DNA of 64,000 nt, from contig CAVYGN010000002.1 in NCBI GenBank assembly GCA_963768055.1, positions 800,001 to 864,000 on the forward strand. The letters are read 5' to 3'. The stretch's first letter is position 1; every line of letters begins with the position of its first letter. The position numbers were made by a program. Shown in pieces: positions 26,501 through 32,500 of this stretch. This stretch comes from an uncultured Spirochaetota bacterium (GTDB taxonomy: Bacteria > Spirochaetota > Brevinematia > Brevinematales > JAOACQ01).

Positions 26501-29500
26501 TGTTTTCATCGGAGACAACTTTATCAATAAAAGAAAAAACCGAATTTCCCTGCTGGATTACCGGTGCTACCGAAGTAAAAAACTCAATAACTTTTTTCTT
26601 CCTTTCTTCATGAAATCTGAAAAGGTCATCCTCCATCAGGTCGGACGTCGAGAAATAATCTCCGGCGCTTATTGCCTCCGTTCCCAGGATTTCACTGACC
26701 AGAGCAGGGGTCAGAGGGTTGAAATGTATAATCATGCTTCTGGATAAAATTGTCGGAAGTATCGTATTGCTTGAATTTGCGGATAAAATTACTAAATTAC
26801 CAGCTGGAGGTTCCTCAAAGAGTTTTAAGCTCGCATTTTGAGTTTCTTCAGTTGCGTTCTCAAAATTTCCTATCAAGGTTATTTTATGACCGGACTCTGA
26901 TTTTATTCCATTGAATTCGATCGCTCTCCTGATGAAATCTATAGGTATTCTAAGTTTTTTTGAAAGCTCATCGGAAACCAGGATAAGGTTCTCGGAAAAA
27001 GCCTTTGAGTTTTCAATCAAATTAAAATAGGATCCGCTATTGATGATACCTGACAATTCGTTCCTGAAATCATTGACAGAATAAGCCGTACTGTCACCGG
27101 AGATTTTTTTCAATTTTATATTTGTGGTTTCACCGAGGGAGATAGCTGTTGAAAGCCTTCCAAGAAGGTAATTTAAATAACAGGGGAATGCCGATCTTAT
27201 CTTTTCGCCTGAGATATTTTTAAGAAAATAACGTGTTTTAACTGAAAACGAATCGTTCCTATAGAATATAAAATCCATTGACAAAAAAGGGTCTTGCAAA
27301 AGGATCTTTCCGGCCATGCGGACTGCGGCTGTAAATTTGCCGCATCCCCGGCCGCCCAGCAGTATTACAGTCCTTCCAAAAATTTTCTCATCGATAATCC
27401 TGGATATTACTGCCTGGGCCCTTGATTGCCCTTGTAGTGAACCCTGCATTACGACGTTCCTCTCTTGATATCGATAAGATTAAGCCTTATTTCCTCATTC
27501 CCCTGGAATTTATTAATTTCCGGGGTTACAACCAGATCGAAATGCACATCTGAATTAACGATCATTTTGATTTTTTTTGACCAGTTCCAGCCTGTAACGG
27601 TTAAAGATTTCCCGTTTTTCTGAATAGTCATAAGAATATGTTCTCCGTTTCTGCCTATAACCCTGTTCGATACTATTTTTACATCTTTCATCAGCAGGCG
27701 GGGTATTTCATTTCCGTTTCCTGTCGGTTCGATAACATTTTCCAGATATCTTATCATATTGAGATTCAGCTCCTCAGCGTCATCGATTACAGCATCAATT
27801 AAAAGTTCTCTTCTTAAATCGTCTGGATTGAGGAGGTCCATATATTCTATTATCCTTTCCCTGAAAGGGCCTATGTTATCGGTTTTAATCGTAAACCCGC
27901 CCGCAGATTTATGGCCGCCGTACTGAATAACAAGGTTATTCAAAGAGTCGAGCATTTTGATGACGTCGAAACCGTTTGGAGCGCGTATGGAACCTGTTGA
28001 ATATTCCCTGTCTATAGCTACGATGATGACGGGGATACTGTAAAGATTAGAGAAGCGATTGGCGAGAAGCCCTGTCGTTCCTTTTGCAAACTTATCGGAC
28101 GATACAAAAAATATCCTGTCTGCAGCATTTGTATTTTTTTCAAGTAGAGTATTGATGATCTCTATGCCGTCATCGACAATATTTTTTCTTTCATTGTCTT
28201 TTGATATAATGTCTTTTACCAGCTCTTCCGATTCTTTTATCTTATTGGATATGAGAAGTTCGACACTGAAACTTGCATCGCCAACTCTTCCCGGAGAATT
28301 CAGAATCGGCGAAACGCTCCAGCTTATGTCCCTGCTTTTGACATGTTCGATATTCATATTGATGTCCCTGAGCAGCGTAATGAGGCCGATGGAGGAATGA
28401 GGTAATAAACGCAGTCCGTTTTTGACAATAGTCCTGTTCTCATCAATCAGAGGCATAATATCGGCGATAGTGCCTATAGCGGCAAGGGGGAGATATTCCT
28501 CATACAGTTCCAGGAGTTTCGTGTTTCTGCTGATTATAAGCCTTCTGTAAACTTCCGAACAGATATAACAATCATAGAGGCTTCGGTGCAGCTTTCCCGT
28601 TTCAGGATATAGACCCAGGGATTTCGCGACAGTTCCGAGCTTATGATCATTTATTTTTTTTATCATTACTCTTGCCATTTTTAGAGTGTCTTCAACAGGG
28701 TTATAAATGCAAACTTTCATGTTTTTTTTAAGTTCTCTCTCCAGAAATTTCAAGTCGAATTCGATAACGTTATGGCCTACAAGTCTGCAGCCGTCGATAA
28801 AATCTATAAACATTCCGAGAGCTTCCTGTATTGATCTGCCCTCTTTTTCAAGCATTTCATTTGTGATACATGTTAATTCTGTTATTTCATTCGTTATTTT
28901 GAGCGAGGGTTTGATAAGGGTTTGAAATTCCGCAAGTTTAATACCATTTTTTACCTTGATCGCCCCGATTTCTATTATCTCGTCCTTCGATGGGTTTAAA
29001 CCTGTAGTTTCAATATCGAAAAAAACGATTTCAATATTGTATGTTTCGCTAAGAGTCATTTTTTCAGCCATGCCGCAAACAAGCTTAAAGGCTACTGATG
29101 CACCGCTTAAAAAAGCGAAGGGATAACTGTCATGAGATATTTTTGGATTTATCACGGCGTAGGCCTCGGGTATTTTATCCCTGGCTTCATGGTGATCGGT
29201 TATTATCACATCGATTCCGATTGTCCGGGCGTATTCTATTTCAGGGATCGATGTTATTCCACAATCCACGGTTATGATCAGGCTGAAATCATTCAGTGCA
29301 GCCCAGCCGATTACATCCTTTGAAATCCCGTAATTTTCAGCGCCTTCAGGGACTCTATAACCTACGTTGGCATCCAGCCTTTGGAGATATTTGTATAAAA
29401 TAGCTGTGGCAGTCACTCCGTCAGCGTCCTTATCCCCGAAGATGAGAATACCCTGCTTCTCTCTTACCGCAAGTTCTATCCTTTCAATGGCTTTAACCAT

Positions 29501-32500
29501 GTCTTTAAAAAAAAACGGGGAATAAAGATTTAGAGGCGATGGTTTAATATAATGCTGGATCTTAGCGGGTGTATCAATACCTCGGCCCAGAAGAATGGTT
29601 GTTATCAATTCCGGGTAATGAAAATACTCGGAAATCTCATTCAACTTTTTTAAATTACGATCGGCAATCAGCCAGATCCTGTCCTTGTTTTGAAAATCCA
29701 TTAAAAGGCCCCTTTAAGATTCAAGTACGATCGATAAAATAGCCATTCTTATAAAGAGGCCGTTATGGGCCTGGCGAAAATACGCTGAGCGTGGATCCCC
29801 GTCAACCTCATACTTTATTTCGTCTACCCTTGGGAGCGGGTGCATTACAATGGCTTTCTCAGGGAGTATATCGAGTATTTTTTTATCAATTATGTATATT
29901 CCTCTGGTTTTTTCGTATTCTTCCATGCTTGTGAATCTTTCCCTCTGGATCCTTGTCTGGTATACTACATCAATATTCTTTACAGTATCCTCGAGTTTGT
30001 CCGATTCCTCGTATATTACTTTATGTCTGTCAAGATAATCTTTTATATCATCTTTCATTCTTACATTCGGAGGGGCCACGAATATTATCCTGATATTCTT
30101 GAATTTTGTGAGAAGATAGGCCAATGACCTGGTTGTTCGTCCATTGGCAAGGTCTCCGACCATTGCTATATTTAAATCATCTATGTGGCCAAGTTCTTTT
30201 TTAATCGTATAAAGATCGAGGAGGGATTGTGTTGGGTGCTGTCCTGTCCCGTCTCCGGCGTTAATTATAGGAATATTAGAAACCTGGCTTGCTTTTCTTG
30301 CCGCTCCGTTTTCAGGATGTCTTATCACTATTACATCTCCATAACCGTTAAGGACGCGGATAGTGTCTTCAAGGGTTTCTCCCTTGGCAGCTGAAGAGAA
30401 ACTTGCGGCGTTTTCAGTGGAGATTACGCTTCCTCCAAGCTTTATCATGGCGGCTTCAAATGATAACCTGGTCCTTGTCGAGGGTTCATAAAAGAGGGTT
30501 ATAAGTATTTTATTTTTCAGAACAGTTACCCGATGGGATATTTTTTCCATTTTATTAGCTGTTTCAAAAATATATTCAAGATCCTGCCTGGAGAATTGCT
30601 GAGATTCAATTACATGCTTTAGTTTCATAAATTATCCCCATTCTATAAATACCCACCGCTGTACCTGATTGCAAGCTGATAGATATCGTCTTCTTTTTCA
30701 TTAAAGAGATGTGTGAAAAGCCCCGCCTTAGTCGTTTCACTGTATTCATCGCTCGATAGTTTCCCAATATATATAGCGTCCTTTCTATCCAGTCTGAGCT
30801 TTTCAATGGAGAGAATGATAAGTGCAGATAAAGGTTTAGTGATTCCTATCCCGTCTGAAAAGTTGAAATCATCGAAAAGATGATAGACCATCAGATCTTT
30901 TAAGAGCAGTTTTATTATATCACCTGTAGTTTTATCGGTTGTTGAAATGATTGATATCTTTTTACCCCTTTCCTTTAAAAGGTTAAGCGTGCTTGTTACA
31001 TTTTTCCGCAATTTAGGAGAAATTTGAAGGGTAGCGTCGATATAGCTGTCGTATATTTTTTTGAATATTACCCCATCCCTGATCCCCAGTTTTTGTATAA
31101 GATATTCGATCTGCTGAAAAGGCCCGCAGGCTAACCCCTTTTCCTCTTCATATTTTACGGCGTAATCGATCGATTCCGAATAAATTTTTCTGAGGGAGGT
31201 AAATTTTATGGGAAAGAGGGACTTTTCAAGTATTGTATAAATATTGTCAAGCCTGTATTTTTCCCTTTCAGCGGATCCGTACGAGTCGTCAAGGATAGTC
31301 TGGTAAAGATTGAAAATAATGCAGGAATAATCGTTCATATCTCCTCCGATTTCATTCTGTAACTTTGACTGTGGAAATAGAAGAAACCTCGTCGTCGCCG
31401 GCTATATCCATCAGTTTGAGAAGATTTGAGCTAACTTTAACTACCCCCATGGAAATTCTTCGGCCGTTTTTAGTGGTTATGATAAGAGTATCGTCTTCTT
31501 CACACTGAACAAAACTAGCGAGGCTTCTGCCTTTACCCAGGAGGACAAGCTTATGTCCCTTTACTCCCCTGTTTAAAAGTTCTGAAAAATCGGAAGGTTT
31601 TACCTTTCTTCCCCTGCCGTCTTTTGTGATAAATATGATAAATTTATCATTGTCGGCTGTTTCCATGCCAAGAACCTCTTCTTCGGGGCCGGTAACCGAA
31701 GTTGCCTTCTCTCCGCCGACTCCCCTGTTATGCACTGTAAACAAATTCTCATCGAACCTGAAACCCTTGGCATTTTTCTTTATAAGAAACAGTTTTTTTG
31801 TTCCATCGGTTATGACCGCGCCCACAACTGCGTCGCCGGCCTTCAAATTTATGCTGTTAACTCCGGTCCTGTTTATGTTCTCGAAATTCGTGAGCGATAT
31901 CCTGGCTGCTTTTCCCTTTTTAGTAATAAACAGGATGAAATGGTTCTTGGTAAATTCATGTACAACAAGAACGGCCGTGATCATTTCACCCCTTATTTCA
32001 ATTTCTCTCAGCCTGTCAATGTTGCGGATATGGGAACGGGTGATTTTACCATCCATATCTCCCCTGATCTCATAGCATTTGAGAGAGTAAATCCTTCCGG
32101 AGTCTGTTACAAAAAGGACCGTGTCTTTCAGGAAACCGGAAACTGTCGCGAATATAAAATCATCAGATTCGAGGCGGTTGCTGTCGGTTACATCGCCTTT
32201 CCTGCCGCGTGTACCCCTCAAGCTCATTTTAATTGTGTTGCCTATCTCGCGGATCAAAAACCCTTTTTTTGAAACGGTGAGCAGAATAGGGTCGTTTGAA
32301 ATAAGTTCTTCAGCCCCGATCTTTTCAGTGACTATCTTTTCGAATTTAGTCCGCCTCTCGTCTCCGATAACTTTCTTCATTTCTGAAAGTTCGGTTTTAA
32401 TAATTTCATCGCGTATTTTTGCGCTGGCCAGTATCTCTCTTAGACTTTTAATAACTTTTTCAAGGTCGGCTTTTTCCTCGCGAAGCTTGTCTGTCTCCAG

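Follow-up and report, generated by a model that had tools for sequence, protein, structure and literature searches.

Can one polypeptide combine RecJ with a DnaQ-type exonuclease, two kinds of enzyme that have opposite polarity and are normally separate proteins, and if so what would it do? The question arises from a gene in the window, that is, the whole 64,000-nucleotide stretch analysed here, which comes from an uncultured Spirochaetota bacterium of the order Brevinematales. An initial annotation described a RecJ protein of 750 aa with DHH, RNase_T and DHHA1 domains in one frame. The ORF list and Pfam reproduced this, and the frame has no internal stops. The gene and its parts are:

27449..29701, (-) strand: recJ-DEDDh gene, 750 aa, stop codon TAA at 27449-27451 (ORF list and translation).
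29054..29701, (-) strand: residues 1-216, N-terminal helices and first DHH portion, with motifs I (D90/D92/D94), II (D146) and III (D169-H170-H171) (Pfam DHH 85-214; 8y30 residues 28-212).
28523..29053, (-) strand: residues 217-393, nested DEDDh domain (DnaQ/PolC-exo-like), predicted 3'-5' exonuclease, with Exo I (D229/E231), II (D316) and III (H372/D377) (Pfam, 2p1j, Foldseek, AF2).
27827..28522, (-) strand: residues 394-625, return helix 394-413 leading to motif IV (D414), remaining DHH domain, long linker helix and DHHA1 (GGH 595-597) (8y30 from residue 214; Pfam; AF2).
27452..27826, (-) strand: residues 626-750, RecJ OB-fold domain (Pfam RecJ_OB 636-744).

The protein scores as a RecJ with the NCBIfam model TIGR00644 (487.5 bits, cut-off 396.9, covering positions 3-542 of 546). 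Pfam places DHH at 85-214, RNase_T at 226-385, DHHA1 (PF02272) at 535-621 and RecJ_OB (PF17768) at 636-744 (E 2.9e-20). The RNase_T match (PF00929) spans the entire profile (1-164 of 164; 120.8 bits against a cut-off of 24, E 1.1e-34), and the dnaq domain model TIGR00573 gives 100.7 bits against a cut-off of 71.5. Residues 28-212 and 214-557 of S. aureus RecJ (8y30) align to residues 30-214 and 401-745 of the query, and the gap in this alignment indicates a clean insertion of ~186 aa. The alignment thus bears out the original description of an exonuclease inserted inside the RecJ core, but the placement given there, between DHH and DHHA1, needs correction. The insert interrupts the DHH catalytic domain itself, separating motif III (DHH 169-171) from motif IV (D414), and the Pfam DHH match ends (residue 214) where the insertion begins.

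The catalytic residues had been left unchecked in the initial annotation; both sets proved intact. D90, D92, D94, D146, D169-H170-H171, D414 and G595-G596-H597 of the RecJ motifs are all present, as are D229, E231, D316, H372 and D377 of the DEDDh motifs (defined as D-x-E for Exo I, D for Exo II and H-x4-D for Exo III). When 128 fused homologues were aligned, the RecJ residues were invariant wherever the segment exists and 123 sequences had the complete five-residue DEDDh set, implying selection on both sites. A RecJ with a nested DEDDh domain that looks catalytically complete is supported as a real architecture.

That the fusion is an artefact of assembly or gene calling is scarcely credible, and nothing in its favour was found. 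The frame is uninterrupted here and in 29 of the 34 other Brevinematales genomes, the nucleotide composition along the gene shows nothing unusual, and both DHH and RNase_T occur in 105 of the 120 homologue clusters listed, which come from several sources. The protein is matched in 34/35 Brevinematales genomes (the window's own counted) at 42-80% identity. The single genome without a match is 57% complete, and another has the gene broken into two frames on the same contig; these figures agree with the order-wide presence, the one split case and the one miss reported earlier. Distribution outside the order, a point left open at that stage, was checked as well: live fusions reach other Spirochaetota and a second phylum, with at least 24 of 121 sampled Elusimicrobiota carrying them. 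This second phylum also counts against an artefact, which we consider refuted.

The AF2 model of the 750-aa protein has a mean pLDDT of 93.9 and a pTM of 0.93, so that the protein is confidently predicted to be one rigid body, both nuclease domains included. The strands and helices of the DEDDh domain lie at 224-392; its C-terminal helix (374-392) runs on into RecJ helix 394-413, which ends at D414, and there is no free tail. Foldseek matched the protein to RecJ 8y30 (E 9e-43) and to the 5f55 and 2zxo folds, and the insert to the DnaQ domains 8h18 (TMt 0.90, rmsd 1.6), 8fyc_K (TMt 0.88) and 2gui (TMt 0.86). The likeness to the exonuclease region of Thermotoga PolC noted at the outset holds, with 2p1j as the best solved relative (E 2.1e-30; 40% identity by Foldseek). 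The named closest relatives of the insert, namely the PolC exonuclease region, DinG-exo and DnaQ-like 3'-5' exonucleases, all act on DNA.

Two narrower assignments were rejected. Pol III epsilon is a free subunit whose C-terminal segment binds the PHP domain of alpha; the insert is not free-standing, has no free C-terminal segment in the AF2 model, and falls below the equivalog cut-offs of TIGR01406 (83.7/222.7), NF004316 (81.3/196) and NF004963 (71.6/245). Nor is the protein a PolC (TIGR01405, 138 vs 1043; NF001688, 144.6 vs 873), since the match is confined to the exonuclease region. The genome has no PolC above cut-off.

Might the substrate of the DEDDh domain instead be RNA or very short oligonucleotides, as for Orn or RNase T, with the domain finishing nanoRNA or nanoDNA or trimming RNA 3' ends? 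PF00929 includes both of these enzymes, the lack of any other RNase_T match leaves the genome without Orn, and the nucleoside-catabolism context seen in Elusimicrobiota and other Spirochaetota (see below) would suit such a role. However, the best matches are to the DNA-acting DnaQ/PolC/DinG-exo subgroup, and RNase T structures reach a TMt of only ~0.69 with Foldseek against 0.86-0.90 for DnaQ domains. The genome also has a separate small DHH protein (339-aa frame), a possible NrnA-type nanoRNase on the basis of a weak match. We regard an RNA or oligonucleotide substrate as rather improbable.

Many relatives retain the insert with the DEDDh catalytic set lost. At least 21 representative RecJs have, at the identical site, an insert homologue of 105-170 aa without a Pfam match, and hhalign comparisons of these dead inserts with the live one gave probabilities of 92.8, 97.9 and 99.5%. 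The 17 dead-insert RecJs that were placed in an alignment keep no more than two DEDDh residues out of five, while the RecJ residues are invariant in all 52 sequences of that alignment. One dead-insert form that was modelled still folds confidently (pLDDT 92.9, pTM 0.92). In a tree built from the RecJ core, dead forms fall within groups of live ones at no fewer than six places. The tree fits an insertion that arose once and then decayed repeatedly. The nested design is evolutionarily old and is found in two bacterial phyla. Retention of the insert after DEDDh loss implies that the domain has some non-catalytic value and that 3'-5' activity is dispensable in those lineages. The dead forms speak for a reading in which the insert serves chiefly as a structural or docking module, whether to bind DNA or a partner or to regulate RecJ, and its nuclease chemistry is incidental even in forms that have kept the residues. 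Against it, the live lineages, the window's own order among them, conserve the whole catalytic five and the flanking Exo motifs at 42-80% overall identity, a pattern difficult to account for unless catalysis is under selection. We think it unlikely, if still worth weighing.

The genes around recJ raise a further possibility. The features concerned are:

26196..27449, (-) strand: Pol III delta'-like gene (holB candidate), 417 aa, downstream of recJ (PF13177, 68 bits; TIGR00678 holB, 68.6 bits, below the 180.6 cut-off).
29714..30628, (-) strand: aspartate carbamoyltransferase-like gene (pyrB), 304 aa, 12 nt upstream of recJ (PF02729 and PF00185).
30643..31338, (-) strand: HAD-family hydrolase, 231 aa, same apparent operon (PF13419 and PF00702).
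31352..33859, (-) strand: gyrA-like gene, 835 aa, first in the apparent operon (PF00521 and PF03989).
33874..33902, (-) strand: best match in the region to a sigma-70-like promoter, immediately upstream of gyrA (11/12 hexamer positions plus TG extension; a consensus match only).

Sigma-70-like sites in the region are as numerous as expected from shuffling. The pyrB gene is immediately upstream of recJ in six of nine other Brevinematales loci. The ATG of the holB candidate overlaps the recJ stop (TAATG, read from the junction sequence), and in 9/9 other Brevinematales loci the candidate likewise follows recJ, either directly or after one intervening gene. It and dnaX are the only PF13177 genes in the genome.

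Is the nested domain then a replisome proofreader, an epsilon substitute brought to the fork via RecJ and the clamp loader? The overlap with the sole delta' candidate and its conserved adjacency would be consistent with this, as would the similarity of the insert to the PolC proofreading domain. So would the absence of a free epsilon gene: the initial annotation had called no separate epsilon and a single RNase_T-family domain, and a six-frame search covering the entire assembly (3.69 Mb) upheld this, finding RNase_T in the recJ-DEDDh gene only. The fused gene is the sole RNase_T carrier in 30 of the 34 Brevinematales genomes with a match, in three of five other Spirochaetota with live fusions and in both Elusimicrobia tested. 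Yet four of eight checked relatives with dead inserts lack RNase_T domains altogether, so that the lack of another one in this genome says little. Among other Spirochaetota with dead inserts, 4/5 genomes are without any RNase_T domain, which argues that the phylum manages without epsilon; a missing epsilon is not peculiar to the fused form. The polymerase itself also counts against a proofreading role. Alpha subunits partnered with epsilon tend to have lost their own PHP metal site, and PHP domains with a full metal site proofread by themselves. In an alignment with Mtb DnaE1 (7pu7/5lew) and Taq 2hpi, the genome's DnaE conserves each of the nine metal ligands of the PHP domain; among solved structures, Taq Pol III alpha matches it best. 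Finally, the insert is far under the epsilon equivalog cut-offs (83.7 vs 222.7 for TIGR01406), it is closed into RecJ on both sides with no C-terminal tail for binding alpha, and holB adjacency was seen at none of the Elusimicrobiota or other Spirochaetota loci with live fusions. The intact PHP site and the dead-insert relatives lacking RNase_T make a role as replicative proofreader very unlikely.

In Elusimicrobiota recJ lies in a nucleoside-catabolism operon; in the Brevinematales window it lies between pyrB and holB. Nucleoside phosphorylases flank recJ at both loci examined first, at 14 of 15 further Elusimicrobiota loci and at all three non-Brevinematales Spirochaetota loci. Neighbours in these groups include genes for PNP, pyrimidine nucleoside phosphorylase and cytidine deaminase as well as a phosphopentomutase-like gene. 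In Elusimicrobiota and some Spirochaetota these genes, together with a second PNP-family phosphorylase and a sugar kinase, would make up a deo-like operon. This context ties RecJs of the inserted clade to the turnover of nucleic acids. It is equally strong for dead-insert forms (12/12 loci) and therefore gives no support for DEDDh activity specifically, and it is absent from the window's own order. A more elaborate proposal is that the clade is a dedicated two-ended ssDNA shredder in a single chain, serving mainly nucleic-acid catabolism and nucleotide salvage from the deo-like operon, its sites cooperating on one DNA molecule, and that the Brevinematales version was re-wired to replication by recJ-holB translational coupling as a trans-acting 3'-end editor at the fork. 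We put this forward as a doubtful extension.

The reading that we prefer, with a probability of about 0.55, is that the protein is a genuine RecJ with a nested DEDDh domain, probably a single-chain exonuclease able to degrade ssDNA from its 5' and its 3' end. The DEDDh domain would be grafted at a surface position of the DHH catalytic domain, giving two metal-dependent nuclease sites of opposite polarity. A 7-residue linker connects it to RecJ at one end; at the other, its last helix passes nearly straight into the motif-IV RecJ helix. In RecJ a phosphate pocket takes up the 5' end, and a helical gateway passes ssDNA only, according to the excerpt of PMC4846377. By comparison with solved RecJ-DNA complexes, the RecJ ring would thread the 5' end into the DHH/DHHA1 cleft, while the DEDDh site may attack free 3' ends, be they 3' tails, 3' flaps or short leftovers released by RecJ. 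One enzyme could thus take ssDNA to mononucleotides from both ends, the two sites presumably cooperating, and the fused RecJ would supply the cell's only DnaQ-family activity. It would likely serve repair, by removing ssDNA (clean-up after RecFOR resection; gaps in mismatch and base-excision repair), as well as the recycling of nucleotides. ExoVII also degrades ssDNA from both ends. The genome encodes it separately (xseA, 408 bits), and its presence counts against the reading preferred here.

Within the literature searched, no published description of a RecJ with a nested DnaQ-type exonuclease was found, and the nesting is so far an undescribed design. As a natural and conserved arrangement it offers a compact system for studying the coordination of 5' and 3' ssDNA end processing, and the series from live to dead inserts across two phyla bears on what a nuclease domain is kept for after its chemistry is lost. 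The unexpected occurrence of this RecJ clade within operons for nucleoside catabolism suggests that RecJ may take part in salvage, a role not found described in the literature searched. If both activities are confirmed, the enzyme could be a reagent for clearing ssDNA from either end.

How does the protein compare with known systems? Like bacterial RecJs (T. thermophilus 2zxo, D. radiodurans 5f55, S. aureus 8y30) it has the full DHH/DHHA1 motifs, the OB-fold and the O-shaped fold, but it has ~177 extra residues between motifs III and IV where the solved RecJs have 1-7. Like DnaQ-like DEDDh domains (PolC 2p1j, S. thermophilus DnaQ 8h18, epsilon 2gui, Cas2-DEDDh 8fyc) the insert has the full profile, the five residues and the fold (TMt 0.86-0.90); unlike them, it is neither free nor terminal but enclosed in the catalytic domain of another nuclease. 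ExoVII (XseAB) resembles the behaviour proposed here in that one enzyme works on both ssDNA ends, but its fold is unrelated and it has a single kind of active site. The DinG proteins of S. aureus and B. subtilis carry an N-terminal DEDD exonuclease on a helicase (excerpts of PMC12345164 and PMC12525004). As described there, they too join a DnaQ-type 3'-5' exonuclease to a second ssDNA-processing repair enzyme; the partner in our case is a 5'-3' exonuclease rather than a helicase, and the domain is internal rather than N-terminal. P. furiosus RecJ and M. jannaschii RecJ2 have 3'-5' hydrolysis beside or instead of 5'-3' (excerpts of PMC5716160 and PMC11193018). In these archaeal proteins, as those excerpts present them, it is the DHH site itself that supplies the opposite polarity, whereas in the fused RecJ it would stem from the separate, nested DEDDh site.

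The recJ gene of the window is one open frame encoding 750 aa (ORF list and translation), and the base composition over the frame resembles that of its surroundings. Its product scores 487.5 bits against the NCBIfam RecJ equivalog TIGR00644 (cut-off 396.9) and has the following Pfam domains.

Domains of the fused RecJ (window 27449..29701, minus strand)
Residues 85-214: DHH; the match ends at profile position 107 of 125
Residues 226-385: RNase_T; E 1.1e-34, all 164 profile positions
Residues 535-621: DHHA1
Residues 636-744: RecJ_OB

Staphylococcus aureus RecJ (8y30) aligns to this protein in two pieces, chain 28-212 with query 30-214 and chain 214-557 with query 401-745, and the D. 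radiodurans and T. thermophilus RecJs break at the same point. Since the known solved RecJs have 1-7 residues there whereas the window RecJ has about 186 extra, the additional stretch is a clean insertion. Its closest solved relative is the exonuclease domain of Thermotoga PolC (2p1j, E 2.1e-30), followed by DnaQ domains, Cas2-DEDDh, DinG-exo and Pol III epsilon. The initial annotation had put the insert inside the RecJ core, between DHH and DHHA1. The first part of this statement stands but the second needs amending, because the insert is placed between RecJ motif III (DHH, 169-171) and motif IV (D414) and is thus nested within the DHH catalytic domain; the Pfam DHH match stops at residue 214 simply because the insertion point has been reached.

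Are both nuclease sites intact? Homologue searches yielded a pool of 259 proteins, and the query was cut into three segments (N-terminal, insert, C-terminal); 128 of the pooled proteins have all three in order, seven of these being incomplete in sequence. Catalytic residues were assigned using the RecJ and DEDDh motif definitions. Both sets, whose check had been left open, are present in the window protein. On the RecJ side D90, D92, D94, D146, D169, H170, H171, D414 and H597 are invariant among the 128 wherever the segment is present; on the DEDDh side D229, E231, D316, H372 and D377 are all kept in 123 of 128, the deviants being the pooled proteins P0091, P0097, P0103, P0105 and P0131. We call an insert with all five DEDDh residues live, and a shrunken homologue at the same site that has lost them dead. 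Another pooled protein, P0121 (1848 aa), has three DHH, three RecJ_OB and two DHHA1 stretches plus a weak Toprim match, and looks like either several RecJs fused in tandem or a gene call joined in error.

An AlphaFold2 model computed from 119 aligned full-length fused homologues has a mean pLDDT of 93.9 and a pTM of 0.93. In it, RecJ helix 200-216 is followed after seven residues by a DEDDh fold running from strand 224 to helix 374-392; helix 394-413 starts one residue past the latter and leads into motif IV. By Foldseek the model resembles RecJ 8y30 (E 9.3e-43) and, in local matches, the DnaQ domains 8h18 (TMt 0.90, rmsd 1.6) and 2gui (TMt 0.86). As described in a report on the D. radiodurans RecJ-DNA complex (PMC4846377), the 5'-upstream bases are stacked upon by V224, a residue shortly past motif IV. 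In the structure-sequence alignment it corresponds to about I415 of the window RecJ, just past the return helix, so that in the model the helix would tie the DEDDh domain directly to the wall of the RecJ active site.

The fused form had been noted throughout the order, and this is borne out: 34 of 35 Brevinematales genomes, the window's own included, match at 42-80% identity, and the sole genome without a match is 57% complete. One of the genomes has recJ in two frames on a single contig. Distribution beyond the order, a point left open initially, proves to take in other Spirochaetota and Elusimicrobiota. Query residues 150-450, searched against a 5.8-billion-protein collection, gave 120 listed matches, of which 105 have both DHH and RNase_T; the sources named among the matches listed include Brevinematales, Brevinema sp., Spirochaetes, Elusimicrobiota and Endomicrobiales/Endomicrobia, together with one partial 'Firmicutes bacterium' protein. 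A search of 401 Spirochaetota genomes of at least 85% completeness found full-length matches outside Brevinematales (35-38% identity) in five genomes from three families (G081, G057, G043, G091 and G070), each with an RNase_T domain inside the RecJ frame. For Elusimicrobiota the query was a fused protein from Endomicrobiales and the sample comprised 121 genomes. Of these, at least 24 match in one piece over the full length (frames of 706-767 aa), and in about 36 the match covers RecJ only to either side of the insert (560-743 aa). In 30 nothing but a free DnaQ of about 200 aa, 33-41% identical to the insert, was matched, and 29 have no match to the fused query at E <= 1e-20. A locus search with the junction alignment brought no new phylum among the matches listed; its patterns are general RecJ motifs. 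Cluster members of 10 divergent live forms are named only 'Elusimicrobiota bacterium' or 'bacterium'.

The 30 free-DnaQ-only Elusimicrobiota genomes (for example G456, G448 and G460) have no RecJ match at E <= 1e-20, and RecJ may be absent from these lineages or very divergent. In the Elusimicrobiota genomes G513 (at C46:39280-39828), G446, G528 and G443 free DnaQ-like frames are broken by stop codons, in one case in a genome that has a live fused RecJ too; these may be decaying free copies.

A further 23 of the 259 pooled proteins are also longer at the insert site, by a stretch that phmmer does not match to the insert. In 21 of them it measures 105-170 aa, and no Pfam family was found there in any of the 21. 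Dead inserts alone, with the flanks cut off, were compared with the live-insert profile, profile against profile.

Dead inserts against the live-insert profile (hhalign)
Two long dead inserts (n=2): probability 99.5%, E-value 2.9e-22
Short dead inserts (n=10): probability 97.9%, E-value 3.8e-13
Treponeme-like dead inserts (n=9): probability 92.8%, E-value 3.9e-7

Of the five DEDDh residues, no more than two survive in any of the 17 dead forms that a joint alignment of 52 sequences includes, and the RecJ catalytic residues are invariant in all 52. The model of P0204, a treponeme-like dead form (pLDDT 92.9, pTM 0.92), shows in its insert (about 207-347) the succession of the live domain, with three strands, one helix and one further strand ahead of the remaining helices; all 49 Foldseek matches listed for it belong to the RecJ/DHH family. 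Judged by the hhalign matches and the order of secondary-structure elements, the dead insert appears to keep the DnaQ fold. In a locus search with the alignment of fused homologues, whose patterns are likewise general RecJ motifs, the named records among the long RecJ matches listed include Treponema sp., Treponemataceae, Spirochaetaceae, Alkalispirochaeta and a Riflebacteria MAG. In the sister order of the same class about 116-125 residues separate the RecJ halves, with no RNase_T match.

How did these forms arise? A FastTree phylogeny of the RecJ core, insert removed, was made from 234 best matches to the window protein (119 live, 22 dead or short, 93 insert-less) by the quickest method and with no root inferred. 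One split, with support 84, sets 89 insert-less proteins apart from all 141 inserted and four insert-less ones, and dead forms are nested among live forms at six or more places. The tree thus fits a single acquisition followed by repeated loss of catalysis and a few complete losses.

In the window, gyrA, a HAD hydrolase gene, pyrB, recJ and a delta'-like gene (holB candidate) are consecutive minus-strand genes separated by 12-14 nt or joined by an overlap, and the best promoter-like site of the region precedes gyrA. The gene next to recJ and another nearby are:

Window 26196-27449, minus strand: delta'-like gene; 417 aa (385-489 aa in relatives), matching only the second half of PF13177 (77-160), the first 160 or so residues having no assigned domain
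Window 23189-25360, plus strand: 723-aa protein with a metallo-beta-lactamase fold and two cyclic-nucleotide-binding domains

At six of nine other Brevinematales loci pyrB is directly upstream of recJ. In the other Spirochaetota with live fusions this place is taken by a PNP_UDP_1 phosphorylase (3/3), and in Elusimicrobiota same-strand PNP_UDP_1 and/or pyrimidine nucleoside phosphorylase genes directly flank recJ at 14 of 15 live-fusion loci and likewise at two of two further loci. Cytidine deaminase, a phosphopentomutase-like gene, a PfkB kinase, a phosphate transporter and PhoU-like genes are also found nearby. The order at the Elusimicrobiota loci L105-L131 is phosphopentomutase-like, PNP_UDP_1, pyrimidine nucleoside phosphorylase, recJ, second PNP_UDP_1, (PfkB kinase), cytidine deaminase; recJ thus sits amid a deo-like nucleoside-catabolism cluster, be the insert live or dead. 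The phosphorylase neighborhood was considered as evidence for DEDDh activity and rejected, because in a control comparison (phmmer against annotated neighbors) dead-insert recJ genes were in the same operon at 12 of 12 Elusimicrobiota loci. It is thus the entire inserted-RecJ clade, rather than the live domain, that the operon goes with; this context suggests that the clade acts in nucleic-acid turnover and salvage and is neutral on DEDDh chemistry. One Brevinematales family (locus L099, genome G001) has, beside recJ and divergent from it, a 5'-nucleotidase-like gene (Metallophos plus 5_nucleotid_C), past which comes a HIT-domain gene in the same orientation as recJ (1991-3520, minus; 273-743, plus).

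One study reportedly implicates RecJ, ExoI, ExoVII and ExoX in E. coli. That the fused RecJ is the only ssDNA exonuclease of its genome is ruled out by the presence of xseA (ExoVII large subunit), which lies about 600 nt upstream of dnaX (C1:1160593-1161774 and C1:1162363-1162839). Both ssDNA exonuclease genes, xseA and recJ, adjoin clamp-loader genes.

Could the nested DEDDh domain be the replisome's proofreader, substituting for the missing epsilon? Gene order offers some encouragement: the terminal TAA of recJ and the initial ATG of the delta'-like gene overlap, PF13177 occurs in no gene of the genome other than this one and dnaX, and the delta'-like gene directly follows recJ at eight of nine other Brevinematales loci, the loci being drawn from all six families (one gene further on at the ninth). 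The assembly, at 94.75% completeness, indeed contains no other RNase_T domain, as first claimed, and in 30 of the 34 matching Brevinematales genomes RNase_T occurs only inside recJ; in the other four it is joined by one or two free copies elsewhere. The replicative polymerase itself, however, argues otherwise. One full DnaE is encoded (1168 aa, TIGR00594 1176 bits), and no PolC over the cut-off. Over its N-terminus this DnaE can be aligned with Taq Pol III alpha (2hpi, E 1.5e-77) and Mtb DnaE1, and all nine PHP ligands are conserved: H, H, D, H, E, H, C, D and H at positions 14, 16, 23, 48, 73, 107, 158, 226 and 228 (Mtb chain count). A complete PHP site is the usual proofreader outside proteobacteria. 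Moreover, epsilon equivalog models score far under their cut-offs, and four of five other dead-insert Spirochaetota genomes lack any RNase_T (three further such genomes have free copies). A role as epsilon is consequently very improbable. The last count also disposed of the idea that live fused RecJ and free DnaQ have complementary distributions; a first sample had shown free DnaQ in three of three dead-insert genomes and none in two of two, then three of five, live-fusion genomes. Separately, a second DnaE-like frame (C2:355381-358116, 960 aa), with a two-piece match below the TIGR00594 cut-off, may be an error-prone DnaE2-type polymerase.

The best-supported reading is that the fused RecJ is one rigid polypeptide with two intact predicted nuclease sites that would attack ssDNA with opposite polarity. 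The RecJ site would take 5' ends and the nested DnaQ-type site 3' ends or leftover short pieces, and the enzyme would serve repair and nucleotide recycling; as ExoVII is also encoded, it would not be the sole route. That the insert is kept after catalytic death in many lineages, and that its catalytic residues are strictly conserved in Brevinematales, suggests that the nested domain has both catalytic and structural value. Public annotation calls the fused proteins plain 'RecJ' or 'exonuclease domain-containing protein'. In full-text literature searches (InterPro architecture tables aside) we found nothing on a RecJ with a DEDD insert, on a RecJ-nucleoside phosphorylase operon or on RecJ in Elusimicrobia; the related topics represented there are RecJ structures, the DnaQ family and, as another exonuclease fusion, DinG-exonuclease.
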